The notes: generated by a model not told the origin, from the letters alone. Counted from the stretch's first letter, positions 1,797-60,097 are shown. The stretch: DNA of 64,000 nucleotides from an uncultured Pirellulales bacterium (GCA_964444665.1 CAYUIE010000003.1:110280-174279); one strand, 5' to 3'. Numbers and translations: made by a program.

Positions 1797-1871
1797 ACGG
1801 GAAATGTAAAGCTAAAAGTCCAAAAATCGTTGTCAAAAACCAGAGTTAATTGGACTGTTCAGGTCTAAAGC

Positions 1872-2939: not shown

Positions 2940-3011
2940 TGCGTTATAAGTGGTTAACGATGGATTGTAGTTGATCTGAGACAACAACTTATTGCAGTTC
3001 ACATCATAATA

Positions 3012-5372
3012 CTAAAAACCCAAGGCACTCATTTGTTGTTGTATCAATGCCAAGGTCCTTTCCAGGCGAGCAAATTGGGCCACCAGCCTGGCCTCTCTTT
3101 GACTCAAACGGTTTTCTTCTGTTTCAATCCTTTGTTGAATTCCTTCTATGGTATCATCGACATGCTCCTGGTCGATTTGGAGCGAGCCGGTCGTTACTTT
3201 AAGCATTCCATCCAGGACATCTTCAATTGCACCTGCAAAACCCTGTTTTACCCAGACAGTAGCAGTAAAAGTGCCATTCTGACTCAAATCGACACTAAGC
3301 TGAAGACCATTCTCAGGATATACAGGATAGCCATTTTCATCGAAGGAACTATCCCCGATGATAACATTACCGCTAAATGCAGCATCGCGATATGTGGATT
3401 CGGTTGAAAGTTTAATCTTGGCACTGGTGATTGCACCACTACCAACAATTACTTCAACGTCATAGCTGCCGGCAGTTGTGTAATTGCTGCTCGCACCATA
3501 AAATTTGATGGTATTACTATCACTGCTTCCGGTTTTGTCCGCTCCAATTAAAGGCAAAACCGCCATATAATCTTCAGCTACAGCCTCATTAAATACGCTC
3601 GTGTTCAGACTCAATACCCCATTTCTGTCAATTTCAAGGCCGATTTGGGCCGGCATCAAAAAGGTATCAGAGCCTTCTACAAATCCACCCGTTGGACTTA
3701 TAAGATAAGTGCTAAGTTGTGAGGTTATAATCGAGACGACATAGTCCCCCATCAATACACCGGCATCTTCCAATGTATCATCGTAGCTAGTCTTTTCCTG
3801 AATATAGCTGATGGCGGTATTATAAGCAGCAATCATAGTATCAAGCTTTTCTTTAACCGATTCAATATCTCTGGTTAGTGTTATTTGCTCTCCATTTGCG
3901 TCAGTTGTATCATGTAAATGCAGTGTTATTCCACTAATAACATCATCTACAGTATTAGAGCTTCTACTTATCCAGCCATCCGAGCCTTTTGTATCTTCCG
4001 CGATGACATAATTCGAAGGTTCTGAAGGAACGAGACCAGTACCAACATTAAATACAATCATATTTACGTCGCCGGCAGAATCAGAAAATGTAAATGTCAA
4101 CGGTCCACCCACATCCAGAGTTGTGCCCCCAACTGAGACTCCACCGACAGCTATAATACTATCCAAGGTATTAAGAGCATCTTCAATTGCTGTTGTGCCG
4201 GTGTTATAGTCAATTTCTGCGGTTGTCTGTCCATCAAAAGTCAAGGTAAACTTACCGGCGGTTGGGGCTGTAGTTGGAGTCAGGCTTTGTATCTCTGCAA
4301 CTGCTGTAGTAGAGGGGAAACCGTCCACCTTGATTTTGGAATCCTGGGCAGTTTGGCTGAGTGTAAAGTCTGCCGGTTCAAAATTGTCGTTAAGGCCCGA
4401 TGCATCCGTGCTTCCACCCACTGTCTCGACCATATTTGGCAATGTCAGCATTGCTCCTGTGCCATTGTCATCCCAATTCAATTCGATGAATAGACTGCTT
4501 GAGCCGGAGGTATTATCCGTGAGGATAATCTCCCCGTTTTCAAGAGTCGCTTTAGCGATTCCATCGAAAGCATCGTTAATCTCCGAAATTAGATGCCCAA
4601 CCGTTGTATTCTCAGTAACAGGAAGGTCCACCTGGGCTATATCAGCGCCATTATGGTCTGTTCCGATTATCTCAATATGTTCACCGCTCCCAAGCGTTCC
4701 ACTGAACTGATCCAGTTCTGTAATCTTAGTACTCAATGTGGCGTTATCGCCGTTGTCGGTAAACGCGATGTCCGCCTGCCAGAATTCGGTACTGCTTTCA
4801 TTGACGAAGATTTTATAATCAGTACCGGCATCATTGCCGTTCAGGACCAGATGATAGGCCTTGTTATAGTACAACAGACTTGCTGTAACTCCTGGATTGT
4901 CCGCATCGTTATTGATTAAGCCAACCAAGTCTTGCAGCGTTGTCTCATCAGTAGTCGTTATAATTGTTTCGTGGTGGTCATACGAATAAATAAAGGTGCC
5001 GGCACCTACATAATCTTCGGTATATTCGAGGCCGTTTGTATGAACCCATCGCTCGGCGTTAGCCAACTGGTTAATTACCACTGTATGATTACCTTCAAAA
5101 GCATTATATGAGGCTTCGGCAGTCAATTTATCACTATCACTCGAAGCGATGCTATAAGCGCGAAGCTCGTTGGCATCAGACAAAGCTCTAACCGCGCTTC
5201 TTAAGGTCTCGAGCCTGGTTTCTAATGTACTGAGCGCATCCTTTCTGTCTTCCCAGAGACTCTTACGCTGCTCGTAAACATTAAGCGTACGGCGTTCTAC
5301 AGCCATCAGTTGAGCAATGAGTGCCTTTGTATCAATTCCCGTTAAAAGACCTGGAAGCTGTATAGTTGACAT
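3012..5372 (-). CDS. fliD: Flagellar filament cap protein FliD (long form, 786 aa)
   Basis: FliD-type N-terminus (QLPGLLTGIDTKALIAQLMAVERRTLNVYEQRK) and C-terminal coiled coil (IDQEHVDDTIEGIQQRIETEENRLSQREARLVAQFARLE). The central region is very large and rich in T, S, G and D. Confidence 0.85.
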   Translation of the reverse strand: MSTIQLPGLLTGIDTKALIAQLMAVERRTLNVYEQRKSLWEDRKDALSTLETRLETLRSAVRALSDANELRAYSIASSDSDKLTAEASYNAFEGNHTVVINQLANAERWVHTNGLEYTEDYVGAGTFIYSYDHHETIITTTDETTLQDLVGLINNDADNPGVTASLLYYNKAYHLVLNGNDAGTDYKIFVNESSTEFWQADIAFTDNGDNATLSTKITELDQFSGTLGSGEHIEIIGTDHNGADIAQVDLPVTENTTVGHLISEINDAFDGIAKATLENGEIILTDNTSGSSSLFIELNWDDNGTGAMLTLPNMVETVGGSTDASGLNDNFEPADFTLSQTAQDSKIKVDGFPSTTAVAEIQSLTPTTAPTAGKFTLTFDGQTTAEIDYNTGTTAIEDALNTLDSIIAVGGVSVGGTTLDVGGPLTFTFSDSAGDVNMIVFNVGTGLVPSEPSNYVIAEDTKGSDGWISRSSNTVDDVISGITLHLHDTTDANGEQITLTRDIESVKEKLDTMIAAYNTAISYIQEKTSYDDTLEDAGVLMGDYVVSIITSQLSTYLISPTGGFVEGSDTFLMPAQIGLEIDRNGVLSLNTSVFNEAVAEDYMAVLPLIGADKTGSSDSNTIKFYGASSNYTTAGSYDVEVIVGSGAITSAKIKLSTESTYRDAAFSGNVIIGDSSFDENGYPVYPENGLQLSVDLSQNGTFTATVWVKQGFAGAIEDVLDGMLKVTTGSLQIDQEHVDDTIEGIQQRIETEENRLSQREARLVAQFARLERTLALIQQQMSALGF

Positions 5373-5495: not shown

Positions 5496-8400
5496 CTAAC
5501 GAATCGCCTGTAGTGTTGGCTGCCTGCATTGAGTCTGCAAAAGGATAGTATTTTGCAAAAGCCGCTGGGCAAATTCATTATTCGGGTTCACTTTCAGATA
5601 ATCTTTTAACTCCAAATGGGCCAAGTCAAAAGCCGTCCGAGCACAAACACTCGAGTTTGATTTTATATAAGACTGACCTATTTTAAGATAAGTTACAGCA
5701 GCAAGACATTTAGCATGAGATTTTCTTGTCTCAGGAGCTATTTTGTCCCACCCAACATCAGGAAATAATTCGTCATATGAGAAGGTTTCCGTAAACCGCC
5801 TGACAACTTCAAAATGGCTCCTGGCTTTATCAATGTTCGTAGATCCTGACAGGTTTTTCAGATACATTCGTCGCAAATGCAAGGTCTCCTGTAAATGATG
5901 TTCTTTAAGACCGGCCTTTACGAAACGTCTCATCATATCATAGTCTTCACCTACCAAAAGTGTTTCATCATAAAGACCGATTCTATCGAAGACGCTCCTT
6001 CTTATGCCGAATCTAAAGGGTATTACAGGGTGTCCTTGTCGGAACAGGTCTCTGATGAGTAACTTGCGATTCTGATATTCGGGCTTTTTCATTATCCTTA
6101 TCGGTTCACCATCGGCGTCAATCAATAAGACATCGCAATAAATAAGGTCGGCCTGTGGATGCTTATCAAATTCCTGCAGGTGCAAAGTTATGAAATGCGG
6201 AGCCATCACATCATCGGCGTCCAAAGGCATGATATATTGTCCCCGGGACCGGATAATTGCATGGTTTCTCGCGCTAGACACACCACCATTTTGCTTAAAA
6301 ATATATTTAATACGATCATCATTGTATTTTAGTACCACCTTTTTGGTATTATCGGTGGAGCCGTCGTCAACAATTAACAACTCAAAGTTTTTATAGTTCT
6401 GGCTCAGGACACTTTCAATTGCCTGGCCAATATAATCGGCACCATTGTAAACAGGTGTTATTATGCTAACCATTGGTTTACTTGAGCTGTTCCGGCGACA
6501 TAGGCTCTGTTTATCATTTACTAATTGTTGGGAGACAAGGTCAACCGCTGAATCCGAATGCGTGATAAGAGCATTAATTTCCCCAAGCATATTAAGCACC
6601 CGGGCATCTTTACCAACATTTGCCAAATAATTAAAAAGAAGTGTTTGGGCTTTCTTATATTCACCGGAAGTTTTCATAATTGCATAGCAATTAGTGATAG
6701 TATCCCTGTTCCATGGATTGAATTTGTATGCCTTAGTAAAGTAGCTTAAAGCTTTTTTTATATCTCCTGCTTCCATCGCCACCAATCCAAAGTCATTCAG
6801 TGCCCTGATGTGGTTGGGAAATTTTTCCAGCAGTTCATCGACTTGTGCATTAGCTTTTAGCCAGTTTCCCTGCTGATTCATAATCAGTGCCCGCAATAAC
6901 AGCACATCAGGATGATTCGGGTGTTTCTGCAATAACTGCCCGCATTTAAGGTCAGCTTGTTGAATATCATTATCATGGAGTAATGTCCGGATATCGTTAA
7001 CCTCCCTGGCGATACTGATTCTGTCCCAGAGCTTTGAAATATATTTCCCAGCTATGTCTGTACTGAAATTCTCTCGCACAAAATCAACCGCTTTACAGCG
7101 AATAGAAGGGTTGTTGTCGACCCTATTTAAGCAAGCGATTATTGCCTCTGCCAGTTTTTCAGGTGTATTATGTGAATATATCAGGCCTGTACATCCATCA
7201 GCTATAGTAGCAGCCGTACCTCCAGCATTATGAGCAACAGGAATACACCCGCATGCCTGTGATTCCAGTGTAACCATCGGAAAAGTTTCAAGCTTAGAGG
7301 GCAGGACAAGTAAGCTGTGCCTGGAATATATTTCCGGCATATCTTTATTGTTAGCATAGCCGTGAAAATACGTGCCTTCCGGTTTTGTGCCTTTGAGTTT
7401 ATCTCCATAGGCATCTCCACCACGCCACATTGAACCATCCCCATAAATGTGCAGTTCGGCATCACTTATCTGCCGGCGGACCAATCGGAAGGCATCTATG
7501 AGAATATGAACACATTTATGCTCATGTAATGCACCAGCATACATTATAGAGTGGCCATTTCTGCTAACATCTTTTGGCGAATATACATCGGTATTAATAA
7601 GATTAGGAATAATCATTAGCTTTTCATCACCGATGACATCATTGTGCAGCGATACCCTGTGTAAATCCGACAAACAAATCACTATGTCGAAATCGCTCAT
7701 ATGTGATAACGATACGAAGTCTTTGGCCTGCCAACAGTGCTGCCACAGTACCCAAATTTGTCCTCTGGGCTTGGTCAAACCTTTGAAGTAGCGAACGTGG
7801 GTTGCGAAGAAAACCATATCAAAGTTTGCAAGGAACTCTGCTCTTTCATTTGGTTTCGGCAACGGAATAATTTTTAAGGATTCATATCGCTCAGGATGAC
7901 ATACGAGATCCCCGGTTATATGAACCTCTATATCGGGGTTTTTTTGAAGCATTTTTGCAATATTCAGTACAGCTATTACCGTTCCTGCAGGACTAGTTTC
8001 ACTGATGTTGCCTATTCTATCATAATAGAATAGTATCTTTTGCTGACCAACTACCGGTGATAAAAGATCTTGCGCCCAATCAAAATCAGGCCTGATGCTT
8101 AAGAGCTTCTCCAAACTGTCACGTGCTCCAGCAAGGTCATCTTGATTTTTCTGTAACATCATCAAGGCAAAGGATGGCTGCCAATCACCTTCTTTAGCCC
8201 GTTCAGCAGCTACCTGATAATCTTCCAATGCTTCATGGATTTGCCCCATACATCTCTTTTTTAATCCCCGCCAAAAGTACGCCAGGCCACATTCAGGATA
8301 CTTCTCAATTGCCTTGTTTATTTTCTCGTATAAATCATCCGGACAAGTTGCAATCTCCTGCCAAGCCCGAACCAAATGCGAAGCCGGAAACAAATCAGGA

Positions 8401-11400
8401 TGACAAGTAGCAATAAATGCCCAGGCTAACTTTAAGTTACCCTTAATTGTCTTATGATACATACTCTGAGGATTTACCCGGTAGAGGAAAAGAGGTTCGC
8501 TTATCCGCCTGACAACGGGATTGTGCTTGGAACAGCTTATCCAGAAATTCCAGTCTTCCGGCTGAACAATAACGTTTAACAAATTATCATATCCACCAAC
8601 TTTGCGCCAAAGATGTTTTCTATAAAGGGACGCGTAAGGCATGGTATTCTTAACCATAACCTGTGAACGGGAATACTCTTCAGGCGCCCATATCTTATTT
8701 GAAGCCCCAAACTCCTGCAGGTTAGCAAAAACTATATCCACATTCTGTTCCTGCTGAATAATATCCACAGCCTTTTTCATAAATGTCGGTTCAAACATAT
8801 CGTCACTATCCAGCGGTAAAATCCACTCATTCGCAGCAGCCAATATCGCTGTATTTCTCGCATCCGCCAATCCGGTATTTTGCGGCTTGTCGATAAGCCG
8901 AATCTTATGATTTGGATACTTTTCTATTAACTGCCTTGTGACCTCAACAGTATTATCAGTACTGCCATCATTGACAATAACGCATTCCCAATTTTTATAC
9001 GTTTGATTTATAATAGACTCAACCGCATCAGGAAGATGATGAGAATGGTTGTAGCACGGGATAACTACAGATATTCCAACCGCGTTGTCATCAGCTTGGT
9101 TGAAATAAAAGCTGACTTCCTGATGAGCTGCATTGCTGACAAATCCAGAATATTTGCTTACGTCAATAACCGCTCCCCGCTGATAAATTTGCGCTAATCT
9201 TTGAGAGCTATAGTTAACATTCACGCCCGACCTGTTCTGCTCATATACATTTTGAACTATATTGGCAGGATTGCAGAAAGTTACACTTTTACGGTAGCAA
9301 AGCAGCATTGACCGGTTATTCCTGAACTGTCTGTTTAAAGCCAACTGTGATTCCAGCAAGTTTGGATTTGAAAAACATCGTCCTGACAAAAAACCTAACA
9401 TTTCCTGCGAGCGGTAAATCGAACTTGAGACCTCCAGCGGATAACCATAATCATGCTCGGCTGTTGTCCAATTAAACTTTAGTATGGAATCTGTTACACG
9501 TTCAAACTGTGGGCGTTTCTGTTCGGTATTAAGTGAGTAACAATAAGTTGTGTTTTCTCCCAAACGAAGTGAAAACCCAATCGCGTCAGTCTCACGCTTC
9601 AATGAGTCCACCACATCTCTGATGGAAAAGTCGCAGGTATATATGTTATCATCCACCATAAACACAATATATTTAGACGCCCCTATTACCTGTAGTGTCT
9701 GCTGTCTAAAATTCCGCTCTTCAATAAAGTCAATATTCTTGAAACATTTTTTCAAATCTTCATATTGGCCTTTATGCAATGGGGAAGTGGTTTTGTAAAG
9801 TACTGTAATATCGAAATTGTTACTGTCTTTACAATGCAACAGAAAAGATTCTATTGTTGCTCTAAGTTGCATTGCCCTATCCTTACTGAAGACCAGAACG
9901 GCAGTATTCTTTTCGGGCTGTTGTTCACTCTCCTTCTGAACATCCTGTGCCCCATCGGCTTGCGGTATTTGTACCAGGCTTGGGGTACTCGATACGCTCT
10001 TATTACGTCGCAACTGCAGGTAAAGCTCCTCATACCTGTCAGCCACAGCTTCCCAAGTAAGGTTTTCCTTCCACTCCTTCCATCCGTCTTCCGCGAGACT
10101 CTTACGGATAATCTCGTCATTCAGTATTTTGTTCGCATACAACGGCATTTTATCAGGCGCACATACAACGCCGCCTTTCCACTCGCGCACATTCCCGCAA
10201 TCAGTGGAAACAAAAGGAGTTCGTGACGCCTTTGCTTCAATAATTACCAGAGGTGAACATTCCTTATCAGAGCCAAATAAGAATATATCCGCCTGACAAT
10301 ACGCCGCTAAAGTAACTTCCCGCGGAACATCGACCAAGAATCTTACATTCAATCCCCTCGCTTTTGCCTTAAGCCCATTGAGTAAAACACCCTGCCGGCC
10401 AATAAATACCATCGTAAGGTCAGGCCTGTTCATTTTCCGCAGGCACTCTATAACTCTGTCCTGCCCTTTGCCTGGAAAAAAGTTAGCAACACATAAACCT
10501 AAATACTTAGTCTTAATTTTATATTTCATGCGAAAGTCAAATGTCGGCATCTGTGAGAATTCTTCTTCGCACACACCATTTGGAATTATTACGCTATTAT
10601 TAAACCCATAATTCTGAGCAAATTCGTAATCCTGATATTGTTTCGAGTGATAAACAGCCGCATCATATTTAGGCAAATATATTGGTATCACTCTGTTGAA
10701 ATAATCCGCGAATTCCGGTAACTGCAGTGTATTATTGTCGCTAAGTGCTGAATAACCGCAAGGCGCTATTATATTAATCCTCCTTTTGCTTGTTTGTTCC
10801 AATGTACCAAGCGCCAGGTCTGTGGCCCACTGCTGAGCTGCGTAATTAAACACAACATCAGCCTGATGATTAAGGAGAAATTGCTGGTAGCGGTCAACGT
10901 CATTTCCACTGAATCCTTTTGCAAACGCCCCGCTAATATTAAATTCTTCTATACGCACCCCATTTAATTCTTTAAATGTCCGCTCAGCCAGCTTTGTTGT
11001 TGCAACTGTCACCTCGTGCCCGCGTTTAACCAGCCATTCTGACAGTTGCTGGACCACCTTTTCAGAGCCACCAATATGTGGTTCGTAAAACTCCACTGTA
11101 TTGAGTATTGACAGTTTATCTCTCGGTTTGGAGCCGCTTTTGGTCGGACGTGATTTATATAATTGTCTCCCTTCTCGTTTGTGTAATCTGTAATTCTCTC
11201 GAATTCTATCAGCAGCTTCCATAACTTCGCTCGCATGTGTGTTGCCGATACTTTTCGGATGTAAACGAATTCTGTGTAAAACTTCAGGGATATTTGCCAA
11301 CTCAAAGTCGGCCAATAACGCCCGGGCAAAAAAATCATAATCCTGTGCAACTGGGTATTCTTTGCGGTAACTTCCAATTCTTTTAAATACGTCCCTACGT

Positions 11401-14400
11401 ATCAATGATGCACTATGAATCATCGAATTTAATTTGTCGAACGTCTCACGAATTCGTTCGGGCTGCCATTCTATGGTGGGTTGTCCCTTACTGTTACCTT
11501 CATCATCAAAATATTCGGCGAAACAACCAACTACTGCTATTTCAGGACGAGTTTCAAGATACCCAACCAATCTTTCAAGTTTTGTCGGCAGGGATATATC
11601 ATCACTATCGTGGTTCATCAAATATTTGGAGTTGGGACTGCAATTTCTAATAGCTTCATTTCTTGCTTTAACAACCCCGACGTGAGACAGTTCTATTATT
11701 TTAATCCTACCATCATTTTTTTTATAGCTCTTTAAGATATCTATTGTTCCATCTTCAGAACCGTCATCAGATACGACTATTTCATAGTTCTTAAAGGTTT
11801 GATTCAAAATAGAATCAAGTGTCTTGGCCAGATATTTTTCTGAATTATACACCGCCATATAAATCGAGACGGCTGGAGAATTGTATCCAAGACCTGATGA
11901 ATAAGAATTTGATTTAATAAATTTAAATTGTACTTCCTGATGGCACGATGAAGGGATGAAGTTAAGAAATTTGTTTATGTCGATTCCGTGCCCGTCATCA
12001 TACATCCTGGCAAGATTATTAGAGGAATATTCTCTCTTGTTTCCGCTTCGATTATCAGGAAAAACATCCTGCACAACATTAACTGGATTACAAAAAGCAA
12101 CAGAGCACGGGAAACAAAGAAGATTTTTCCTGCTATCAGCAAAAGTGTCTTTACTTAGAGCAATTTCAGCTTCTAAGGTGTTTGGGTTTTGAAAATCCAA
12201 TTTAGTTAATAAAGGCAAAATATCATGAATTCTATAAATAGAACTGGATACTTCTAACGGATAACCAAAATAACCATTTGCACCTGTCCAGTCATATTTT
12301 AATACTCTTCCTCCTACATTTATAAAAGATGGTATTATCTGCTCTGAGGAGGATGGGTAATGGTAGTTGATATTCTTTCCCAAGCGTAAAGAGAAACCAA
12401 GAGTATCCGAATTTTTTTGTAATGCTTCGATTATTTCCGACAAACAGAAATCTTTAACAAAAATGTTATCATCCACCAGGAAAAGTACATATTGGAAATG
12501 CTTGAGATTAGATAACAATTGCTTTCTAAAATCATTTTCCTCAATAAACTCAATGAATTTGTATTCCCTAATTAGTTTATTATAAGATTCTTTATGATAG
12601 TTATTGGAAACTTTATAAATCACCTTCAAATTCACATTCTGCAGGTCTTTGCAATTCAATAGAAAAGACCGTATTGTAACATCCAACTGCATGGCCCTGT
12701 CTTTACTGAAAATTACACCATTAACCAAACCTGATGAGCAGGTCGTACCAGATTCATCATTATCCGGTCTGGTGAGAGGCAGCGATTTTTTGTATCCAAT
12801 CAAGTAATGGTTATCGGGAAGATGTGCGATTGGATAGCTTTCCCAGGCAAGATCAATTTTGCTCTTAGCCAAGCGGCGAAAATAATGAATATTGTTAATC
12901 TGGCCAAACTGGTTCTGATATGCAATTAGATAATAATCGGCCCTTGAAACAAGTTCGAATACGCGGTCTCTGATTTCCACAGGTGCCTCGCTCATCGACC
13001 ACAATGCAATAAAAGCACAATCTGCAGCTTTGTGATTTAGCTGCTCAGACAATTTGTTCATATCAGAAATCAAAACTATTCTGGTGGGGGCATCAGAGAC
13101 ATCACCATAGCTAATGTACCGCTGAAAACCTACGCAACTAAGAAAGTATTCCTGCAGTGCGCTTAACTCCGGCAGGTCATAAATAATGTAACGTCCTTTA
13201 AAACCCAGCTGATAAGCCAGTCTGCACATGCTTCCATAGCCGCCGCCAAATTCCACAATTTCAGCCAACTGATCTACCTGACATTCAGCTTTTTGCTCCA
13301 GTTGCGCAAGACTATACGCGTGATGTATCAGGTTACCACTGCTTTCAAGATATGGCCCATATAGCTTTGGATTACCAATCTGGGACTCTCGAATGGCCCT
13401 GTGCCATCTGTCCCAATCAGGCAGACTCTGTAAAAACTGCAACTCTTCAATTTTAGCTTCATGGAACATCGTTGCTACAATGGGCTGCCAATTGAGAAAA
13501 TTGCTGAGGTCATCATTCAATATCATTTGACGAATACTATTTCTACGTTCAATCCATTTAGCCTCAATCCTGGAGCTGTTCACATCAGTGGAAACAGAAC
13601 AATCAATTTGCTTTATTCTTTTTCTAAGTAACTGGGCATGCTGCTGAGACTTAGTTTTACGAGTCTGTTGCAAAGCAGCAAAAAGTTTTCGTATCAGTTC
13701 GTTTTGTGGATGTGCCCGAATAACTTCACGCTTTATTTCTTCGGCGATTTGAGTATTACCCTTAGCGTACTCGGAGCGGGCAAGATAGAATTTAATTCGC
13801 CAGCGATCGAGCCCAAGGTTAATAGCTCTTCTGTATTCATCCGATGCCTGCCGGTAACGTCCCTGTGCCTCCAGCGATAATCCATTCCAAAACATATATT
13901 TCTGCTCTGCATAAAATGCTCGTCTTTTAGCGCTCAAATCAGCAAATTTTTCATGCCCAAGTTTTTGTAATGTTTCTTCCGCCTGCAGTACTTCCTGGAT
14001 AGTTCTTTCGTTACAACCCCCAAAATCTGAGGCGCTTATCAAACACAGTTTAAAAACGTCAGTATATTTACTGGGATGCGCAATTGCGGTCATCGTATTT
14101 CTATCAAAGTTTTTATTAACTTTTTTCTCGCAAACGTTAAAAAGAACACTATAAGGATTAAACTTTATTTTGAAACCTGCCCGCTGAACTCTTCGGCACC
14201 ATTCAACATCTTCACCTTCGCGATGGAAAAGCTCCTCATCTAAATTATATTTCAGAAACAACGCTTTTTTCGTAATAATCTGTGCACCATCGACCCACAT
14301 TGTAAGGTCCCAATCGTTGTGGTCTAAATTACAGCCCACGTATTTACCGTTGATTGCAGTTGCAACCAGCGCATCGTTGTGCTTTTCTCTGCCGTCAGGT

Positions 14401-17400
14401 GAAAATACTCCGCAATACTGAATCACCCAGTCATCGCCAAACTTTCTCATTCCTTCGTACCAGCCGGCAGCTAACCTGATGCGGTCATGGAGAATACACA
14501 TGTTTTCATAAGTGGCATTGGCTGCAACGATATTCTTTTTCTTAGTCAACCATCCCTTATCATCATTTTCACTAAACTTGATGTATCTTACAGGATATCC
14601 GGATGGATTAGCATAAGTGCCGCAGACGATAATCTCGTACTGTGGTATGTTCTGGGCGATAATGCTTTCGATAAGTTCATTTACCCATGCATCACGTTTG
14701 CCATTTGTAATAATTCCAAAACTCCATCGGCCTGTTTTGGTGTTCTGATGTGGATATAAATCTGAATGTTCTTCAACGCAATTATAGTATTGATGAATAT
14801 ATCTTTGTTCTAACTGTCTTCCGGTAATACCATTGTGTTTCTGCTCATAAACGGTGTTATAAAATGAATGAATTCCTAAAGAGTTATTAAGAAAAAGAAT
14901 ATTTTTACCTGTATTTTGCGAATAGCGGTTCAGAGGTACCTCATCAAAAGAATCGTAACTAAGTGATCTGTCATTTATTATTTCCTGGTAAGTTGGCAAT
15001 TTAATGGCAAAAAAACTATTGCAAAAATATGGCCTGTTTTCTTGCATCGGCTTGAAAGATGAGCCGCTTATGCTGTTGAAAAATAAGTTATAAAGCCGGG
15101 CAATTTCCTGATTAATATACACTTGGAACTTTATATTCACCCTGAATGGGTGTATTCCTTTATAGACACATTTGAGCTTTCTGACTTCGTTCCAGTAATT
15201 ATCTTCGTCCCATTCAGGATTTTTATCCAAATAACTGTTTAAGTTAGAATAGTTTGTTCCCCACAAACAATCAGGGACATTTATTCCTTTCAACATATCA
15301 TACAATAAACTTATTTTTTCTTTAGGAAACAGTAAGTTTATAAATTCAAAGGCTGAAGGGATGCCTGTGCTTAGGTTAACAGTAGTGGCTAAGGAATTAT
15401 CCTGTTCCAAAACGTCGGGAGAATGCTTTATGAACTTGCGCCAGGAGTCAGGTGATATAAAAATATCCTCATCTGCCTTTATTAAATACTCAAAGTTATT
15501 ATATTCAGTAAGAACAACCTTGATTTTGTCCAGATAACTGAGTCCGTTAAAGTATCCTGTATGAATGTCAAAGATTGTGGAAAAGGGTTTAATGAACTCC
15601 TCAAATTCATCGGAATTTTTGTCATTGGAAAATGCGAAGATTATCCGTCCGGGGAATTTTTCATTTTTGAAGGCAGCGTAGAAGTGCAAAAAAGCGGTTT
15701 TAATACTTTCTATGGTTCTAAGATGCGGCAAAAACAACAGCAAATATTTGCTGTTCGGCTCTTCGAGAGCTGAATTAGTATTAGCAGTAGAACTATCTGT
15801 ATTGGCTAATTCAGAAATCAAATTTTTACCCTTTATACTTGAAGTAGATAACTCCTGCCTCGGAAGTTTCTTACTCAAGTATTCATTGCCCGCGTTCTCA
15901 TATTCCGACCTCTTGAACGTTTGCATGTGCCTCTTATATTGGTTGATTCCGCAATCAAACAGGGACTTAGGCTTTACCGAACTGTTCATCCCAATCCAAA
16001 ATTCAGCGTTGTGTCTCAGCGACAAAACATGGTTAGCGTCAGGATTGGTAATATCTTCTATCTTAGGTAACTTTCTTATATAATCTGACTTTGACCACCA
16101 AAAATTTCCGGAAAAATGCGGGACAGGTTCGGTTCGCCAATCAACACCGCAGGTATCATAATCGTTTAAGTTCCTTAAACAGTCTTCATATCTTTCAACA
16201 TTGAAATAAGTCATATATTCTCGCCAATCAGTGATGGCTTCAATATATTGTTTGTCGGCTGATACACCTTTGGTATGGATATAGAGTATTTTGTAGCATG
16301 GATTCTCAACTGCAAATCGTCGTAATTCCTTTAATGTATCGAATTCAAATCTACTTAAATCTCCGTTTTGGTACAGAATTTTAACCTTATTTAAATTCAA
16401 GTTGTTTACCGGCCGATTGCCGACTATTCCGACAAATAGTCCGTATAGTAAATCATATAGTCCGCTCTTTTGTATGGCGGTTATAAGTTCGTCAACTACG
16501 TCTTGATAGTTCCCAACGGTTGCGACATGAAGAAAGACAACACACTTATCAATGGAGCTTGTTTTTGGCAACTTCATCAGGTTTATATTGAAGTTCTTTT
16601 TCTCAACCTCCACATATTTTTCCGCGATTTTTACACTCTTGTCGTAAATTAAGCCATGAAAAGGTTCCAGATCTCTAATGATATTTTTTTTACCGATGAA
16701 CGGGAAAGGCGAATAGATATCATATTTGTCTAAATCACTACCTTTGTCCAAAGCTTCCATTAGTATTTGATCTAAATGTGCTGTCTCAGATTCTGTAAAC
16801 TTTTTTGTCAGGTGGTCTGTGCCAAAAATTTTAGATTCGAACAGGCTGTTTATGGCTGTCCCATCATTTTCCAAACAGTCGTATGCGAATGAAATCTTAT
16901 TACCTATTTGAACACCCCAAAAGCCCTTCTCAAGGAACTGGTCTGCTAACTTCATCTCTCCATCATGATCATCGTTAAACTGCCAGTCAATGGTTCCTAA
17001 AGTACTTGTTTTTGCGAACCATATAGGCGCTCTTGAATGACTGGGTGCAAAATACTTGGTTCCACTCAGATTGTTCATTATTTGAGGGCTGACGAAACCA
17101 ATTCTCTCATGGTGGTCCAATAGTGTAACAGCCTTTAAAAGCCAATTATCGGATTTAATAAACACGTCATCGGAGATAAAGGCGAAATATTCGTACAGGT
17201 GCTTATATTTGTTAAAATAAAATCTATAAGCCCCAAAGGCTTTATGAGGGATGTCATTGCCATTTATGTCTATTTTGTTCTCATAAATAATTCTTCCATA
17301 TTTATTAAAAACATTATCCTTATTTACGCCCTGGAAATTTCGATGAACGAATATTATGTCATGATGAATGCCTGGCTCGCAGTTATGGTACGTTGGCCAA

Positions 17401-17459
17401 AAACATGAATTTTGTTTTTCGCTGCCTCCTAAGAAGATTATCGCAGTGTTGTTTTTCAC
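5496..17459 (-). CDS. Giant multi-module glycosyltransferase / methyltransferase / TPR fusion protein (3,987 aa)
   Basis: Uninterrupted ORF. Motifs read by eye: three classical GT2 N-termini (SIYMAVYNSEKYL..VVSDDGSEDGT; VVIPCYNHSHHL..IVNDGSTDNT; SIITPVYNGADYI..IVDDGSTDNT); one GT-A-like block (FGIITNGKRD..YEIIVCG); two GT-B/GT4-like blocks (FYEPHIGGSEKV.. and ..ETFPMVTLESQACGCIPVAHNAGG); a class-I SAM methyltransferase motif (IVEFGGGYGSMCRLA); a duplicated FSKDRAMQL module; three further N-terminal DxD-type modules; and several TPR-like stretches. Confidence 0.85.
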   Translation of the reverse strand: MKNNTAIIFLGGSEKQNSCFWPTYHNCEPGIHHDIIFVHRNFQGVNKDNVFNKYGRIIYENKIDINGNDIPHKAFGAYRFYFNKYKHLYEYFAFISDDVFIKSDNWLLKAVTLLDHHERIGFVSPQIMNNLSGTKYFAPSHSRAPIWFAKTSTLGTIDWQFNDDHDGEMKLADQFLEKGFWGVQIGNKISFAYDCLENDGTAINSLFESKIFGTDHLTKKFTESETAHLDQILMEALDKGSDLDKYDIYSPFPFIGKKNIIRDLEPFHGLIYDKSVKIAEKYVEVEKKNFNINLMKLPKTSSIDKCVVFLHVATVGNYQDVVDELITAIQKSGLYDLLYGLFVGIVGNRPVNNLNLNKVKILYQNGDLSRFEFDTLKELRRFAVENPCYKILYIHTKGVSADKQYIEAITDWREYMTYFNVERYEDCLRNLNDYDTCGVDWRTEPVPHFSGNFWWSKSDYIRKLPKIEDITNPDANHVLSLRHNAEFWIGMNSSVKPKSLFDCGINQYKRHMQTFKRSEYENAGNEYLSKKLPRQELSTSSIKGKNLISELANTDSSTANTNSALEEPNSKYLLLFLPHLRTIESIKTAFLHFYAAFKNEKFPGRIIFAFSNDKNSDEFEEFIKPFSTIFDIHTGYFNGLSYLDKIKVVLTEYNNFEYLIKADEDIFISPDSWRKFIKHSPDVLEQDNSLATTVNLSTGIPSAFEFINLLFPKEKISLLYDMLKGINVPDCLWGTNYSNLNSYLDKNPEWDEDNYWNEVRKLKCVYKGIHPFRVNIKFQVYINQEIARLYNLFFNSISGSSFKPMQENRPYFCNSFFAIKLPTYQEIINDRSLSYDSFDEVPLNRYSQNTGKNILFLNNSLGIHSFYNTVYEQKHNGITGRQLEQRYIHQYYNCVEEHSDLYPHQNTKTGRWSFGIITNGKRDAWVNELIESIIAQNIPQYEIIVCGTYANPSGYPVRYIKFSENDDKGWLTKKKNIVAANATYENMCILHDRIRLAAGWYEGMRKFGDDWVIQYCGVFSPDGREKHNDALVATAINGKYVGCNLDHNDWDLTMWVDGAQIITKKALFLKYNLDEELFHREGEDVEWCRRVQRAGFKIKFNPYSVLFNVCEKKVNKNFDRNTMTAIAHPSKYTDVFKLCLISASDFGGCNERTIQEVLQAEETLQKLGHEKFADLSAKRRAFYAEQKYMFWNGLSLEAQGRYRQASDEYRRAINLGLDRWRIKFYLARSEYAKGNTQIAEEIKREVIRAHPQNELIRKLFAALQQTRKTKSQQHAQLLRKRIKQIDCSVSTDVNSSRIEAKWIERRNSIRQMILNDDLSNFLNWQPIVATMFHEAKIEELQFLQSLPDWDRWHRAIRESQIGNPKLYGPYLESSGNLIHHAYSLAQLEQKAECQVDQLAEIVEFGGGYGSMCRLAYQLGFKGRYIIYDLPELSALQEYFLSCVGFQRYISYGDVSDAPTRIVLISDMNKLSEQLNHKAADCAFIALWSMSEAPVEIRDRVFELVSRADYYLIAYQNQFGQINNIHYFRRLAKSKIDLAWESYPIAHLPDNHYLIGYKKSLPLTRPDNDESGTTCSSGLVNGVIFSKDRAMQLDVTIRSFLLNCKDLQNVNLKVIYKVSNNYHKESYNKLIREYKFIEFIEENDFRKQLLSNLKHFQYVLFLVDDNIFVKDFCLSEIIEALQKNSDTLGFSLRLGKNINYHYPSSSEQIIPSFINVGGRVLKYDWTGANGYFGYPLEVSSSIYRIHDILPLLTKLDFQNPNTLEAEIALSKDTFADSRKNLLCFPCSVAFCNPVNVVQDVFPDNRSGNKREYSSNNLARMYDDGHGIDINKFLNFIPSSCHQEVQFKFIKSNSYSSGLGYNSPAVSIYMAVYNSEKYLAKTLDSILNQTFKNYEIVVSDDGSEDGTIDILKSYKKNDGRIKIIELSHVGVVKARNEAIRNCSPNSKYLMNHDSDDISLPTKLERLVGYLETRPEIAVVGCFAEYFDDEGNSKGQPTIEWQPERIRETFDKLNSMIHSASLIRRDVFKRIGSYRKEYPVAQDYDFFARALLADFELANIPEVLHRIRLHPKSIGNTHASEVMEAADRIRENYRLHKREGRQLYKSRPTKSGSKPRDKLSILNTVEFYEPHIGGSEKVVQQLSEWLVKRGHEVTVATTKLAERTFKELNGVRIEEFNISGAFAKGFSGNDVDRYQQFLLNHQADVVFNYAAQQWATDLALGTLEQTSKRRINIIAPCGYSALSDNNTLQLPEFADYFNRVIPIYLPKYDAAVYHSKQYQDYEFAQNYGFNNSVIIPNGVCEEEFSQMPTFDFRMKYKIKTKYLGLCVANFFPGKGQDRVIECLRKMNRPDLTMVFIGRQGVLLNGLKAKARGLNVRFLVDVPREVTLAAYCQADIFLFGSDKECSPLVIIEAKASRTPFVSTDCGNVREWKGGVVCAPDKMPLYANKILNDEIIRKSLAEDGWKEWKENLTWEAVADRYEELYLQLRRNKSVSSTPSLVQIPQADGAQDVQKESEQQPEKNTAVLVFSKDRAMQLRATIESFLLHCKDSNNFDITVLYKTTSPLHKGQYEDLKKCFKNIDFIEERNFRQQTLQVIGASKYIVFMVDDNIYTCDFSIRDVVDSLKRETDAIGFSLRLGENTTYCYSLNTEQKRPQFERVTDSILKFNWTTAEHDYGYPLEVSSSIYRSQEMLGFLSGRCFSNPNLLESQLALNRQFRNNRSMLLCYRKSVTFCNPANIVQNVYEQNRSGVNVNYSSQRLAQIYQRGAVIDVSKYSGFVSNAAHQEVSFYFNQADDNAVGISVVIPCYNHSHHLPDAVESIINQTYKNWECVIVNDGSTDNTVEVTRQLIEKYPNHKIRLIDKPQNTGLADARNTAILAAANEWILPLDSDDMFEPTFMKKAVDIIQQEQNVDIVFANLQEFGASNKIWAPEEYSRSQVMVKNTMPYASLYRKHLWRKVGGYDNLLNVIVQPEDWNFWISCSKHNPVVRRISEPLFLYRVNPQSMYHKTIKGNLKLAWAFIATCHPDLFPASHLVRAWQEIATCPDDLYEKINKAIEKYPECGLAYFWRGLKKRCMGQIHEALEDYQVAAERAKEGDWQPSFALMMLQKNQDDLAGARDSLEKLLSIRPDFDWAQDLLSPVVGQQKILFYYDRIGNISETSPAGTVIAVLNIAKMLQKNPDIEVHITGDLVCHPERYESLKIIPLPKPNERAEFLANFDMVFFATHVRYFKGLTKPRGQIWVLWQHCWQAKDFVSLSHMSDFDIVICLSDLHRVSLHNDVIGDEKLMIIPNLINTDVYSPKDVSRNGHSIMYAGALHEHKCVHILIDAFRLVRRQISDAELHIYGDGSMWRGGDAYGDKLKGTKPEGTYFHGYANNKDMPEIYSRHSLLVLPSKLETFPMVTLESQACGCIPVAHNAGGTAATIADGCTGLIYSHNTPEKLAEAIIACLNRVDNNPSIRCKAVDFVRENFSTDIAGKYISKLWDRISIAREVNDIRTLLHDNDIQQADLKCGQLLQKHPNHPDVLLLRALIMNQQGNWLKANAQVDELLEKFPNHIRALNDFGLVAMEAGDIKKALSYFTKAYKFNPWNRDTITNCYAIMKTSGEYKKAQTLLFNYLANVGKDARVLNMLGEINALITHSDSAVDLVSQQLVNDKQSLCRRNSSSKPMVSIITPVYNGADYIGQAIESVLSQNYKNFELLIVDDGSTDNTKKVVLKYNDDRIKYIFKQNGGVSSARNHAIIRSRGQYIMPLDADDVMAPHFITLHLQEFDKHPQADLIYCDVLLIDADGEPIRIMKKPEYQNRKLLIRDLFRQGHPVIPFRFGIRRSVFDRIGLYDETLLVGEDYDMMRRFVKAGLKEHHLQETLHLRRMYLKNLSGSTNIDKARSHFEVVRRFTETFSYDELFPDVGWDKIAPETRKSHAKCLAAVTYLKIGQSYIKSNSSVCARTAFDLAHLELKDYLKVNPNNEFAQRLLQNTILLQTQCRQPTLQAIR

Positions 17460-18336: not shown

Positions 18337-18337
18337 G

Positions 18338-24967: not shown

Positions 24968-26155
24968 CTATGTGATGAAATCCAGCAGCGACATGGACAT
25001 AAGTCTTGCAGCCATTGATAACGACATCTGATACAAAACCTCATGACGAGATATATCTATAACAACCTGGGCAATGTCCGCCTCCTGCAGATAAGTCACT
25101 TCATCCTCAGCGTTATATTTCAGGTTTAACAGAGTATCTTTTAGATTATCCAGAAAGCCAATTTTCGCTCCAAAAGAGGCTTGTCCCTGGACCAAAAGAT
25201 TCGTAATTTCATCCAGCGAGTCTAATGAATTCATTTGCAGTTCATGCAATTGTGTCTCGGAAAGACCTCTCTCGTTTTCCAATATATCCCGGAAAGTTAT
25301 AAGCATGTTGAATATATCGTAAGTTCCTGGTATACGAACAAGTTCAACTCCCGTACTGCTTATTTCAGTAGTATCAACATATAGCACTTTGCCGGTTCTC
25401 GAATCCGTTACAGCTTGGTTTGTTCCCCCCCCTGGCGGGACAGTTACATAGCTTGCTCCGTCATCGATAGACAATTTATAATTAGAGCCATCGTGGATTA
25501 CCGTAAGCCATACATCACCCGTGACGCTCGATGTACCGGTGCCAGCTTTGGCGCCGGTCTCGCCCAGAAAAGCTGGTGTACCTCGATTATCAGAACGGAA
25601 AATATCGTCACCTGCGTAAAAAGCAACAGACTGAACACCGGGGGCTATTTCTGTATTTCTTTGCTCAAAACCACCTTGATAGGTTACGTTGGTGATTTTC
25701 CCATTAGTACGTTCAACAGCATAAGGAGCCGATGAGGTATTACTCCCCCCAAATAAATACTGATCCATATGCTCAGTATTAGCTAACAAAACTACTTGTT
25801 CAAGTGCATCATTGATTACAATTGCAACTCTTTTACGTCCCTCTTCGTCATAGGTTCCGCTGGCAATCTGAGTTAGATAATTTTTAGTATCTATCAAAAT
25901 TGTAACTATATCTCCAACAATCGTGGATGAAAGTTCAAGAGATGTAATAACGCTCGACAAGTTTTCCATATAATTTTCCAAAGACCTTTTCTGAGAGTTA
26001 AGCCCTAATATCTGGTATGCAGCAGACGGTTTATCAGATGGTCTATTTACATAGGAACCTGTTGCTGCCTGTTCTTGCAAGCGAGCCAAAGCTTTGGTGT
26101 GCAACTGCAATGCAAAGCTAATATCATTGTAAATACTATTTAACGACCCGCTCAT
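24968..26155 (-). CDS. flgL: Hook-filament junction protein FlgL
   Basis: Flagellin-like N-terminal and C-terminal helices (LARLQEQAATGSYVNRPSDKPSAAYQIL.. and ..EADIAQVVIDISRHEVLYQMSLSMAARLMSMSLLDF). It lies directly downstream of flgK. Confidence 0.85.
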   Translation of the reverse strand: MSGSLNSIYNDISFALQLHTKALARLQEQAATGSYVNRPSDKPSAAYQILGLNSQKRSLENYMENLSSVITSLELSSTIVGDIVTILIDTKNYLTQIASGTYDEEGRKRVAIVINDALEQVVLLANTEHMDQYLFGGSNTSSAPYAVERTNGKITNVTYQGGFEQRNTEIAPGVQSVAFYAGDDIFRSDNRGTPAFLGETGAKAGTGTSSVTGDVWLTVIHDGSNYKLSIDDGASYVTVPPGGGTNQAVTDSRTGKVLYVDTTEISSTGVELVRIPGTYDIFNMLITFRDILENERGLSETQLHELQMNSLDSLDEITNLLVQGQASFGAKIGFLDNLKDTLLNLKYNAEDEVTYLQEADIAQVVIDISRHEVLYQMSLSMAARLMSMSLLDFIT

Positions 26156-26191
26156 TATAATCCCATAAATAAATTCTAAAGTTATGACTGT

Positions 26192-28153
26192 TTATACTAT
26201 TTCCATAAAACTTAAAATTGCAGACTGAATGGTATTTAAATATTTGGCCATAGCCTGAAACATTTGCTCGTAAATCAACATCTGAGCAGCTTCATCGTTT
26301 ATATTGACTCCACTTATCTCACCCTGCTGACTGGCAAGGCTTTGAATTATCGCCTCAATATTGTCCTGCTGAATTTGTTTGTTAAAAATCTGCTGACCGA
26401 TGTCTGTAACCAACCGGTGATAAAACTGTGGCGGTGTCATTTCACTCAGGCTACTTAAAGATTCATCCTTTAATCCTGCTAACCGTAAGGCATTGGTATT
26501 ATCTGTCATATCCGGCCCCAGAGAAGTTGCTATCCGGCCGGGTGTAGCAGATACATCCGAACAAACGGCTATATCTATAGCGTTACTTCCGGAGAAAAAG
26601 GTATTAATCCCAACCGCCGCCAGCACACCCGAGGTATCACTACTGGAAAAGGCATCAACTTCGAAACTATCACCTGCGTTCAAATCGCCCATACTTAGAG
26701 ATATTTTGATTCCATTACCTATATCGAGTTTATCGCCGGCGGCATAACCGGCACCAACATTCAAATTTGCTACAACATCACCAACACCATTTCTCACTTC
26801 AAGCTGTAAACTGCCGTTGCCAACCGTATCTGTGCCTATTACCGTGAAGGTGAAAGTTTGATTGTCAGTTCCGTTATAAATACCTGAAACAGATACGTTT
26901 GGCGGCGAGGCGCCAGTAAGATTACTCACGGTAGGAACAGGCAGAACACATGGGATAAAGTCAAATGTATAATCCACACCTGCCTGTATATATAACCGAT
27001 TATCAGCAACCGATGCAGACAGACCGGTAATTGCTGAAATATCCGCAGCTATCGTCGTAAGCGAATCTGTTGAAACATTAATATCAATTTCATTTCGTGT
27101 TATTTGCCCCGTGCTTGTATCAGTAACTCTTATATATATTTTCCCATCGGACACAGGAGGGACAAAATCGGCTAAGTCTTCGCTAACCATTCGCCAGCCA
27201 TTCAATTGCGTAAAGGAACCTTCTGAACCCACTGCCTGGACATGGTACTGGTTTACTTGTTGTATAATTGCGGTTGCTAAACTGTCGAGGTTGCTGCTAA
27301 TATCCGCTACAATACTGTTCTTCAATGTTAATAATCCCCCAAGCTGGCCTCCTTGTACTTCAATGTCATAATTACTTGCCCCGGCAATCGAGATACCAAG
27401 CATGCCCTGCTCTTTCAAGCCTACTTCCAATTCAGACGAAGTTGTACCTACTACCGCAGGCAAACCAGCTATATAGACATCAACCACTCCATATTCCCTC
27501 TGTTGAGTCTCTACTGCAATTAATTCAGACAGATCATTTATGAGCTGGTCTCTTTGGTCTCGCAAATTATTTGCTACACTACCAACTATTTCCATTCTCT
27601 CTATATTGTCGTTAAGGCCGGCAATCCGACCTGTTATTGTATTAATTTGTTCGATTATGTTTTCGGCTTCCAATCTGATTTGCGTCTCCAACTTATTAAG
27701 AAACTCACTTAACGTTCTAAATTGATTAGCCATTGTCTCGGCGGCGCTTATAACTTGATTCTGCCATATGGCTTCAGCGGGATGGGTCGACAGGTCCTGA
27801 AATGCATTAAAAAACTCATCAATAGCTGTGCTCAATCCGCTACCAGATGAAAGCTCTCCGAACGCTGTTTCGATTGTTCGCAGTGCAGAGAATTCACGTG
27901 AGATTTGCCCCAATGATGACTGTTGCCTGAGAATCTCCTGCTCTAAAAGTAAGTCGATAACTCTTGTAACACCGGTAATATTGACGCCCCCTCCAATCAG
28001 TATCGGCCCCTGTTGTGATGAGTATGCAGGATTCAGTTTTATTCTTTGAAGGTGATATCCCTCAGTAGCCGCATTTGCAATATTGTTGCCGATTATATCA
28101 AGCGCTTTCTGAGCAGCATCGAGACCACTAAGTCCTATGGAAAAACCTTCCAT
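26192..28153 (-). CDS. flgK: Hook-filament junction protein FlgK
   Basis: N-terminus FSIGLSGLDAAQKALDIIGNNIANAATEGY and C-terminus GVNINDEAAQMLIYEQMFQAMAKYLNTIQ. Length is 653 aa. Confidence 0.9.
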   Translation of the reverse strand: MEGFSIGLSGLDAAQKALDIIGNNIANAATEGYHLQRIKLNPAYSSQQGPILIGGGVNITGVTRVIDLLLEQEILRQQSSLGQISREFSALRTIETAFGELSSGSGLSTAIDEFFNAFQDLSTHPAEAIWQNQVISAAETMANQFRTLSEFLNKLETQIRLEAENIIEQINTITGRIAGLNDNIERMEIVGSVANNLRDQRDQLINDLSELIAVETQQREYGVVDVYIAGLPAVVGTTSSELEVGLKEQGMLGISIAGASNYDIEVQGGQLGGLLTLKNSIVADISSNLDSLATAIIQQVNQYHVQAVGSEGSFTQLNGWRMVSEDLADFVPPVSDGKIYIRVTDTSTGQITRNEIDINVSTDSLTTIAADISAITGLSASVADNRLYIQAGVDYTFDFIPCVLPVPTVSNLTGASPPNVSVSGIYNGTDNQTFTFTVIGTDTVGNGSLQLEVRNGVGDVVANLNVGAGYAAGDKLDIGNGIKISLSMGDLNAGDSFEVDAFSSSDTSGVLAAVGINTFFSGSNAIDIAVCSDVSATPGRIATSLGPDMTDNTNALRLAGLKDESLSSLSEMTPPQFYHRLVTDIGQQIFNKQIQQDNIEAIIQSLASQQGEISGVNINDEAAQMLIYEQMFQAMAKYLNTIQSAILSFMEIV

Positions 28154-36827: not shown

Positions 36828-36915
36828 ATATTCGTCTTCTTCCTAAAAAATCCGATGATTAAACAAATCTTCTTTTTTAAATTGTTCGCGACAATAATAG
36901 TCCGGGCAAATCTTG

Positions 36916-58324: not shown

Positions 58325-58339
58325 AAAGCCTTTCTCTTT

Positions 58340-60083: not shown

Positions 60084-60097
60084 ACTTACTATCTTTT

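Follow-up and report, generated by a model that had tools for sequence, protein, structure and literature searches.

Flagellin glycosylation, in the systems known so far, takes place in the cytoplasm, on the protein and before export. Here we describe, in a 64,000-nucleotide (nt) stretch of DNA from an uncultured Pirellulales bacterium (GCA_964444665.1 CAYUIE010000003.1:110280-174279; hereafter the window, with positions counted from its first letter), a single open reading frame (ORF) of 3,987 amino acids (aa) that is enclosed in a run of flagellar genes. The giant protein combines about eleven transferase-like modules with one methyltransferase-like module and three blocks of tetratricopeptide repeats (TPRs), and its gene is, of the versions known, the largest; smaller ones adjoin fliD in related genomes. 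With a probability of roughly 0.6, we read it as an enzyme that lengthens an O-glycan stepwise, and O-methylates it, on flagellin or some other axial protein (FliD, for example).

In Caulobacter crescentus, the flagellin O-glycosyltransferase FlmG binds flagellin through its TPR part (PMC7591256). Its likeness to the giant lies in the pairing of TPRs with a glycosyltransferase (GT) of the GT-B type in a soluble, cytoplasmic protein encoded with flagellar genes; the conserved core of the giant has the order TPR-GT4-TPR. However, FlmG is 596 aa long and transfers a single pseudaminic acid with its one GT, whereas the giant has some eleven GT-like modules plus the methyltransferase. An NCBIfam scan gave no FlmG-specific match. 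The N-terminal TPR and C-terminal GT-B order of FlmG is found likewise in a 472-aa neighbour (23342-24760), which is, in architecture, the closer match to FlmG, and architecture is as far as this likeness goes. An earlier reading of the window, made from sequence only, had seen this TPR-GT logic concatenated many times in the giant; that was too strong, as three TPR blocks are present and they flank GTs only in the C-terminal core.

The system closest to the mechanism that we propose is that of type B Clostridioides difficile, in which GT1, GT2 and GT3 act in sequence on a cytoplasmic flagellin O-glycan, GT2 adding two rhamnoses and also being responsible for methylating them (PMC5207246). Its enzymes are separate and of ordinary size, whereas the giant is one chain of 3,987 aa. 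Consecutive GTs and a methyltransferase in one soluble chain are found in the three-domain proteins A064R and A111/114R of chlorovirus PBCV-1 (638-860 aa), which serve a protein-linked glycan, the capsid N-glycan (PMC9614988). Fused GT-A and GT-B modules, often with TPRs, also make up capsule and O-antigen polymerases such as K4CP, the WbbM/WbbB type and Cps1B/Cps7D (PMC5974469, PMC11231755), and here the giant is similar; these polymerases differ in having 2-3 catalytic modules, in making repeat-unit polymers on lipid acceptors and in having ABC-transporter genes nearby.

Additionally, the locus resembles flagellin glycosylation islands which, in Geobacillus, Enterobacteriaceae and Aeromonas, are strain-variable blocks of GT, methyltransferase and sugar-activation genes amid late flagellar genes (PMC5109656, PMC4875605, PMC7874193). 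Those islands consist of many separate genes, whereas here the variable content is mostly fused in frame to a conserved core gene. In the giant, a flagellin glycosylation island and a multidomain glycosyltransferase come together, and what stands out is how far fusion has gone and that shorter and split forms occur as a natural series. A literature search found no comparable megaprotein in a flagellar locus, in agreement with what the sequence-only reading had supposed, and no planctomycete flagellar glycosylation. Very large genes are, in themselves, a familiar planctomycete feature.

The giant ORF and its downstream neighbour, whose product is unusually long for a FliD, are as follows.

5496..17459, minus strand: giant ORF, 3,987 aa, GTG start, single open frame of 11,964 nt
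3012..5372, minus strand: fliD for the filament cap, 786 aa, downstream of the giant ORF with 123 nt between them

The giant ORF is a genuine single polypeptide, and the claim of one uninterrupted frame stands. The identical 3,987-residue gene is called on contig Ga0307443_1000005 of Joint Genome Institute (JGI) metagenome 3300031365 (335,869 bp; present in two samples). Direct DNA repeats within the ORF reach 31 nt at most, which makes a mis-join through repeats unlikely, and an assembly chimera through internal repeats was dropped as a candidate. The GTG start coincides in alignment with the N-termini of stand-alone proteins of the family to which the first module (N1) belongs, and a weak AAGG lies about 10 nt 5' of it; a promoter and terminator scan was uninformative, with the same counts as in shuffled sequence. 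A Kyte-Doolittle scan of the giant protein reached a maximum of 1.16 over 19-residue windows. Thus, with no window more hydrophobic than this, we conclude that the protein is soluble, and a membrane-bound synthase was dropped for lack of a hydrophobic segment.

The modules, from the N terminus to the C terminus, are listed below.

16575..17459, minus strand: N1 (aa 1-295), rare family of ~290-aa stand-alone proteins
15870..16562, minus strand: N2 (aa 300-530), DUF8361 (PF27674), nucleotide-sugar-transferase-like fold
14760..15752, minus strand: N3 (aa 570-900), undescribed family, invariant D663-x-D665 ('ADEDIF')
14145..14729, minus strand: divergent GT2-like GT-A module (aa 911-1105), conserved H991-D992 and E1083-D1084
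13695..13901, minus strand: TPR block 1 (aa ~1187-1255), TPR_16, E 3.8e-6
12780..13652, minus strand: methyltransferase-like module dependent on S-adenosylmethionine (SAM) (aa 1270-1560), motif I 'VEFGGGYG'
11895..12737, minus strand: X1 (aa 1575-1855), GT-A fold, motifs FSKDRAMQL, VDDN and YPLEVSSS, no Pfam match
11190..11876, minus strand: GT2a (aa 1862-2090), PF00535, E 3.5e-37, DXD motif 'DSDD'
10020..11114, minus strand: GT4a (aa 2116-2480), GT-B fold, Glyco_transf_4 and Glycos_transf_1, EX7E motif ECSPLVIIE
9084..9917, minus strand: X2 (aa 2515-2792), paralogue of X1 at 47% identity, first module of the conserved core
8430..9077, minus strand: GT2b (aa 2795-3010), PF00535, E 1e-36
8070..8327, minus strand: TPR block 2 (aa ~3045-3130), TPR_2, E 0.004 (weak), relatives at 51-75% identity
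7005..8045, minus strand: GT4b (aa 3139-3485), GT-B fold, Glycos_transf_1, E 2.5e-28, EX7E motif ETFPMVTLE
6540..6977, minus strand: TPR block 3 (aa ~3495-3640), TPR_19, E 1e-13, and other TPR models
5820..6482, minus strand: GT2c (aa 3660-3880), PF00535, E 1.7e-37
5499..5762, minus strand: C-terminal tail (aa 3900-3987), no family match, relatives at 47-61% identity

Most module boundaries of the sequence-only reading lie within ~10-40 residues of these, except that the methyltransferase starts ~50 residues upstream and N3 ends ~77 residues downstream of where they had been drawn. Its count of at least ten transferase-type modules agrees with the roughly eleven transferase-like modules now found by Pfam, hhalign and fold models, with N1 the weak member. 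Of the three or four TPR blocks that it counted, three are present, the second weakly.

What that reading overlooked is that the giant is the largest of a series built on a core of ~1,470 aa with a variable front extension. Relatives were taken from eight loci of a genome scan and two of a metagenome scan, giving 10 contigs, several of the core loci being cut by contig ends. All eight genome loci come from metagenome-assembled genomes (MAGs) of uncultured Pirellulales (Planctomycetota), with 57-74% identity over residues ~1580-3987. The core consists of X2, GT2b, TPR block 2, GT4b, TPR block 3, GT2c and the tail; parts of it are carried by the 10 contigs at 52-84% identity, and TPR block 3 has no significant match in loci L007 and L009. 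The core evolves under purifying selection, with dN/dS of 0.15-0.20 against four orthologues. The ORFs that contain it in the related loci, with their fused or separate fronts, form the following series of lengths.

L005: 1,490 aa, core with no fused front, three large separate ORFs upstream of it
L009: 1,558 aa, core with no fused front, one separate ORF of 781 aa upstream of it
L014: 2,022 aa, core with a methyltransferase fused in front
L003: 2,567 aa
L007: 3,178 aa
window: 3,987 aa

In the relatives the core gene lies close to fliD wherever the contig extends far enough, as had been looked for; the full 3,987-aa form was found on this contig only. All seven contigs that reach past the core have fliD downstream of it, five directly and two after one ORF; this intervening ORF encodes 317-338 aa (L003, 20309-21259; L009, 8511-9524). 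The shared order of the relatives starts upstream with flgI, flgN, flgK, flgL, TPR-GT4, GT2-TPR, TPR and a 110-aa ORF, then continues with the variable region, the core, fliD and, on the other strand, flhB and fliR. Upstream flanks show flgKL and the TPR-GT genes in L003, L006 and L008, and GT2-TPR with the 223-aa TPR gene in L014 and L015.

In contrast to the core, the front varies. In some relatives (L005, L009) the region equivalent to the giant ORF is split into 2-4 ORFs, and the variable parts in the relatives include radical SAM/SPASM, FkbM and class I methyltransferase, polysaccharide deacetylase, GT9, GT4 and GT2 domains. Compared with the 2,022-aa form, the window has N1, N2, N3, the GT2-like module and TPR block 1 added at the front, and X1, GT2a and GT4a added between the methyltransferase and X2. 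The GC content forms a mosaic, at 0.34-0.39 in N1-N3 (N3 0.34) and 0.33-0.39 in X1-GT2a (X1 0.33), against 0.43 in the methyltransferase module, 0.44 in GT4a and 0.40-0.44 in the core; the low-GC stretches are modules without counterpart in relatives. Four genes found upstream of the giant ORF, namely a haloacid dehalogenase (HAD)-family gene, two nucleotidyltransferase genes and a 210-aa ORF, are absent at the equivalent position in L003, L006, L008 and L009. The first ~2,500 residues consist of modules accreted specifically in this strain, some of them of lower GC, which arrived together with sugar-activation genes for an HAD mutase or phosphatase and two nucleotidyltransferases. The whole looks like a hypervariable module region, partly acquired horizontally, that has been fused 5' of a conserved flagellum-linked core.

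Five of the modules are canonical GTs. The three GT2 modules score 126.8-129.4 bits on PF00535 (gathering cut-off 23.3) and carry the motifs DSDD, DSDD and DADD, and both GT4 modules are above the gathering score (GT4a, 58.1 bits on PF00534 and 44.1 on PF13439; GT4b, 94.2 on PF00534 and 99.6 on PF13692). Four further modules (X1, X2, the GT2-like module and N2) are well supported as GT-A-like, N3 is moderately so and N1 weakly. X1 and X2 have more than 1,200 family members at ~50% identity, mostly N-terminal to a GT2 and in some cases stand-alone proteins of ~316 aa. A model of X1 built from a 24-sequence alignment has a predicted local distance difference test (pLDDT) score of 89.8 and a predicted template modelling (TM) score of 0.89, and Foldseek matches it to GnT-I, TarP, SpsA and POMGNT1 (E 3e-8 to 1e-6, TM score ~0.5). 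Its 'VDDN', in which D1663-D1664 are invariant, aligns to the DXD motif of SpsA; both X modules are confidently modelled as GT-A folds.

At the N-terminal end, the N2 family assignment is consistent, with PF27674 annotated on the giant gene product and on nearly all homologues aligning to aa 300-530, and AlphaFold2 (AF2) models N2 with pLDDT above 90. The module lacks a DXD motif and has H395-x-K397 in its place; its invariant residues are E372, H395, K397 and G451-N452-F-W-W455. In N3, the first ~130 residues form a Rossmann-like beta/alpha domain at moderate model confidence, and the N3 family profile had no meaningful match among PDB sequences. The joint N2-N3 model matches the tandem GT-A proteins LH3, the CHSY3-CHPF complex, K4CP and COLGALT1, and also WbbM. 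The GT2-like module has a Glyco_tranf_2_3 match in Pfam (E 3e-4), an hhalign probability of 91% against the GT2 profile and 25 homologues, mostly unnamed.

N1 is probably a DXD-type GT-A domain, as had been suggested, although the evidence is weak. Its family (27 representatives at E<1e-10) has no Pfam match and a near-invariant D97 in 'FISDDV'. The N1 profile aligns to the GT-A domain of chondroitin synthase 3 (CHSY3) at the DXD motif with E 0.046, Glyco_tranf_2_5 is matched weakly by 9 of 32 family members, distant ones, and hhalign gives probabilities of 41% to X and 24% to N2. The N1 part of the AF2 model is poor (pLDDT below 50) because alignment depth there is nil. Single-sequence comparison of unassigned segments with the PDB returned nothing useful.

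The SAM methyltransferase claimed from sequence was upheld in its motif, the homologues keeping the GxGxG SAM-binding motif I and D1428, but not in its family score, which for TIGR04371 ('putative sugar O-methyltransferase', E 7.6e-9) is 35.5 bits, below the cut-off of 44. Stand-alone homologues of ~316 aa share ~50% identity with the module, and one homologue is annotated 'putative sugar O-methyltransferase' by JGI.

Pieces of the giant recur elsewhere. Among smaller proteins, P0119 covers X2, GT2, TPR and GT4 at 61% identity and P0190 covers GT4a and X2 at 51%, and a MAG labelled Desulfobacteraceae (L013) has an X2-GT2-TPR-GT4 fragment that is 61% identical. The N2-N3 pair is found in P0001 and recurs in viral contigs (L016-L095) at 38-44% identity. 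The motif [YF][SA]GNFWW led to at least 584 confirmed DUF8361 matches in viral contigs, including giant-virus MAGs and phage-sized contigs. Viral fold matches of N2 include phage proteins of 204-234 aa (TM score 0.77-0.89) and, as third-best match in BFVD, the nameless 638-aa viral protein M1IF74 (E 3.5e-23). Together, these sequence matches suggest that N2-N3 glycosyltransferase modules may have been exchanged between viruses and bacteria.

The neighbours of the giant ORF bear on its role. One co-directional minus-strand run, flgD through fliD, encloses it, and fliP, fliR and flhB lie on the opposite strand past fliD. Annotation of the neighbours confirms the position, seen earlier, between sugar-activation genes and fliD.

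minus strand, first part of the run: flgD, flgE, a 272-aa ORF without assignment, flgF, flgG, flgA, flgH, flgI
minus strand, next part: FlgJ-like fragment, flgN, flgK, flgL-like gene
minus strand, last part: TPR-GT4, GT2-TPR, TPR, two small ORFs, HAD, two nucleotidyltransferase-like genes, giant ORF, fliD
17545-18402 and 18706-19440, minus strand: two sugar-1-phosphate nucleotidyltransferase-like genes, directly upstream of the giant ORF
19394-20071, minus strand: beta-phosphoglucomutase-family HAD gene, upstream of the nucleotidyltransferase-like pair
20064-20696, minus strand: 210-aa ORF, function unassigned, no family match, in the window only
20763-21095, minus strand: 110-aa ORF, function unassigned, no family match, relatives at 41-55% identity
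21102-21773, minus strand: 223-aa TPR-only protein, like SycD/LcrH (class II type III secretion chaperones), E 2.8e-13, kept in relatives
21764-23326, minus strand: 520-aa GT2-TPR protein, kept in relatives
23342-24760, minus strand: 472-aa TPR-GT4 (GT-B) protein of FlmG-like architecture, kept in relatives
24968..28153, minus strand: flgL-like gene (395 aa) and flgK (653 aa), immediately upstream of the glycosyltransferase block
54452-54808, minus strand: fliS
54996-55811, minus strand: flagellin, 271 aa, Ser/Thr-rich central segment, candidate acceptor

The flagellin lacks large outer domains, and its short central stretch (SGTNDNITLDKTDVSKSGLSINALGLSTTSSASTALTT) has many Ser and Thr residues. 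TPR block 1 of the giant matches the same SycD/LcrH model as the 223-aa protein, more weakly (E 3e-5); this likeness of both to secretion chaperones may hint at binding of an export substrate. Compared with PDB sequences, the GT2-TPR and TPR-GT4 neighbours matched only generic GT2, TPR and OGT-TPR entries.

Several other features of the window are recorded here. Just past flagellin and fliS, and 39 kb from the giant ORF, a second glycan-related cluster (56642-63513, minus strand) encodes two PMT_2 (GT-C-like) membrane proteins, a 228-aa GT2, a radical SAM protein and a carbamoyltransferase, the PMT_2 and GT2 genes being at 56.6-61.7 kb. The sigma-54-like motif TGGCAC-N5-TTGC has 10 matches in the window against 3.6 expected: two overlapping sites, each with one mismatch, lie just upstream of flgD (36906-36931, minus strand), and a perfect match (39103-39117, plus strand) lies upstream of a gene at 39210 for a 976-aa TPR protein, whereas the window scan placed none directly upstream of the giant ORF. 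Two sigma-54 activator genes are present (37507-38943 and 43121-44626). Between them, inside the flagellar cluster, the segment 39210-43083 (plus strand) encodes the 976-aa protein, which has YbgF-like and TPR regions, followed by a 313-aa ORF without family match.

The protein is soluble, its gene sits among late flagellar genes with two TPR-GT neighbours, and no glycan-export or lipid-priming genes were seen nearby. Thus, we favour extension of a flagellar O-glycan as its function. We infer the acceptor and the product, as well as the order in which the modules act and whether the non-canonical ones are active; flagellin is the most likely substrate, and FliD or the hook-associated proteins are also possible. 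Either a neighbour (TPR-GT4, GT2-TPR or both) or one of the giant's own modules would start a glycan on a substrate of flagellar export while that substrate is still in the cytoplasm. The fused modules would then add sugars one by one, and O-methylate them, ahead of type III export, with the TPR blocks either gripping the protein substrate or oligomerising the enzyme. Differences in module content among relatives would in turn yield strain-specific flagellar glycans.

Several observations weigh against this proposal. The link to flagellar proteins comes from gene context. Pfam found no Maf/DUF115 domain in the segments of the giant or in 40 neighbouring ORFs, and no nonulosonic-acid pathway genes (NeuB/PseI type) among the neighbours scanned, and the PDB matches of the 520-aa GT2-TPR neighbour, all to generic GT2 proteins, included no GmaR chain. 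In GT fusions of capsule polymerases the TPRs serve oligomerisation and not substrate capture (PMC5974469). The complete 3,987-aa architecture was carried by no second contig in the genome and metagenome scans. Since N1 has weak fold evidence and N2 no DXD motif, fewer than eleven transferase sites may be active. Two further points concern loci outside the Pirellulales flagellar cluster. At the metagenomic locus of P0226 an X-GT2-TPR protein (656 aa), a GT4 (388 aa) and a GT2 (750 aa) are consecutive separate genes, so that units of the core are unfused there, and no flagellar genes are neighbours. Similarly, in the Firmicutes Pelosinus and Desulfotomaculum, X-GT2 proteins are encoded in clusters with many GT2-TPR and sugar-nucleotide genes, and the nearest 10 kb contain no flagellar gene.

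These last two observations are also what one would expect if the giant were a multi-module synthase for a non-flagellar glycan, whether of the envelope, capsule-like or of the holdfast type, on a lipid or other acceptor, its place in the flagellar cluster reflecting co-regulation with the swarmer-cell stage or chance. TPR-bearing multidomain GT polymerases are familiar from the synthesis of capsules and O-antigens (PMC5974469, PMC11231755), and chondroitin polymerases and WbbM rank among the leading PDB matches by fold to N2-N3. However, among the Pfam matches of ORFs 109-46243, where several ORFs have no match at all, there is no ABC transporter (Wzm/Wzt or KpsMT), flippase, polymerase, chain-length regulator or lipid-carrier initiating phosphoglycosyltransferase, and the giant has no membrane segment. 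The constant position of fliD downstream of the core (7 of 7 contigs), and of flgKL and the TPR-GT genes before it wherever the upstream flank is present, also argue against a non-flagellar role, which we regard as unlikely while giving it some weight.

The protein could instead be a flagellar enzyme in which only some modules are catalytic, N1, N2, N3 and possibly X1 and X2 being degenerate scaffolds or binders of carbohydrate or nucleotide; counting modules would then greatly overestimate the length of the glycan. Some of the GT-A-like modules may indeed be non-catalytic. LH3 and COLGALT1, top fold matches of N2-N3, have tandem GT-A-like domains, and one GT-A domain of each pair is non-catalytic, which makes them the models for such accessory domains; N2 has no DXD motif and N1 is not resolved in the model. 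Yet invariant polar residues resembling an active site are kept in X (D1663-D1664), N3 (D663, D665), N2 (E372, H395, K397) and N1 (D97). The lack of a DXD motif also has a catalytic precedent, as domain 2 of the 638-aa A064R is an inverting, cation-independent alpha-L-rhamnosyltransferase of a new family, with homologues reported in planctomycetes, including Lacipirellula (PMC9614988), and a viral protein of 638 aa is among the best fold matches of N2. DUF8361 is often fused to Methyltransf_24 domains, and a DXD-less N2 would fit the A064R domain 2 family, an identification that we offer as a lead only. Considering both sides, loss of catalysis in so many modules strikes us as rather improbable.

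A bolder form of flagellar glycan extension would make the giant a protein-templated assembly line, in which the TPR blocks hold the export substrate while its O-glycan is handed between the fused active sites. By analogy with polyketide synthases and nonribosomal peptide synthetases, the sequence of the glycan would be specified by which modules are present and perhaps also by their order. On the same speculative reading, the series from 1,490 to 3,987 aa would record how modules were gained and the flagellar surface reprogrammed, and DUF8361-N3 would be among the modules traded with phages and giant viruses. We think it doubtful that the protein works in this way, and hold each of these steps with correspondingly low confidence.

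That the giant ORF is an artefact, either an assembly chimera or adjacent genes merged by sequencing errors, is very improbable: it lies on a metagenome contig, its equivalent region comprises 2-4 ORFs in L005 and L009, and no other contig has the full architecture, but the frame is open across all 11,964 nt without a long internal repeat, the contig occurs in two samples with an identical gene call, independent assemblies of relatives hold ORFs of 2,022, 2,567 and 3,178 aa at the equivalent position, and the module junctions are plausible low-complexity linkers.

If stepwise extension and O-methylation of a flagellar O-glycan is indeed what the giant performs, it would be by far the largest fusion of GT modules known for a protein-linked glycan, with about eleven GT-like modules compared with 2-3 in characterised multidomain enzymes. 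The underlying logic would be an extension of known systems, and it is the gene context from which we infer the function. The locus also gives functional context to four families outside Pfam families of known function, namely X (more than 1,200 homologues, usually with GT2), DUF8361, N3 and N1. As it exists in core-only, intermediate-fusion and split forms, it would offer a natural experiment on how module content relates to glycan structure and on channelling and processivity, with possible use in glycoengineering. For the Planctomycetota, it would be the first sign of elaborate flagellar glycosylation.

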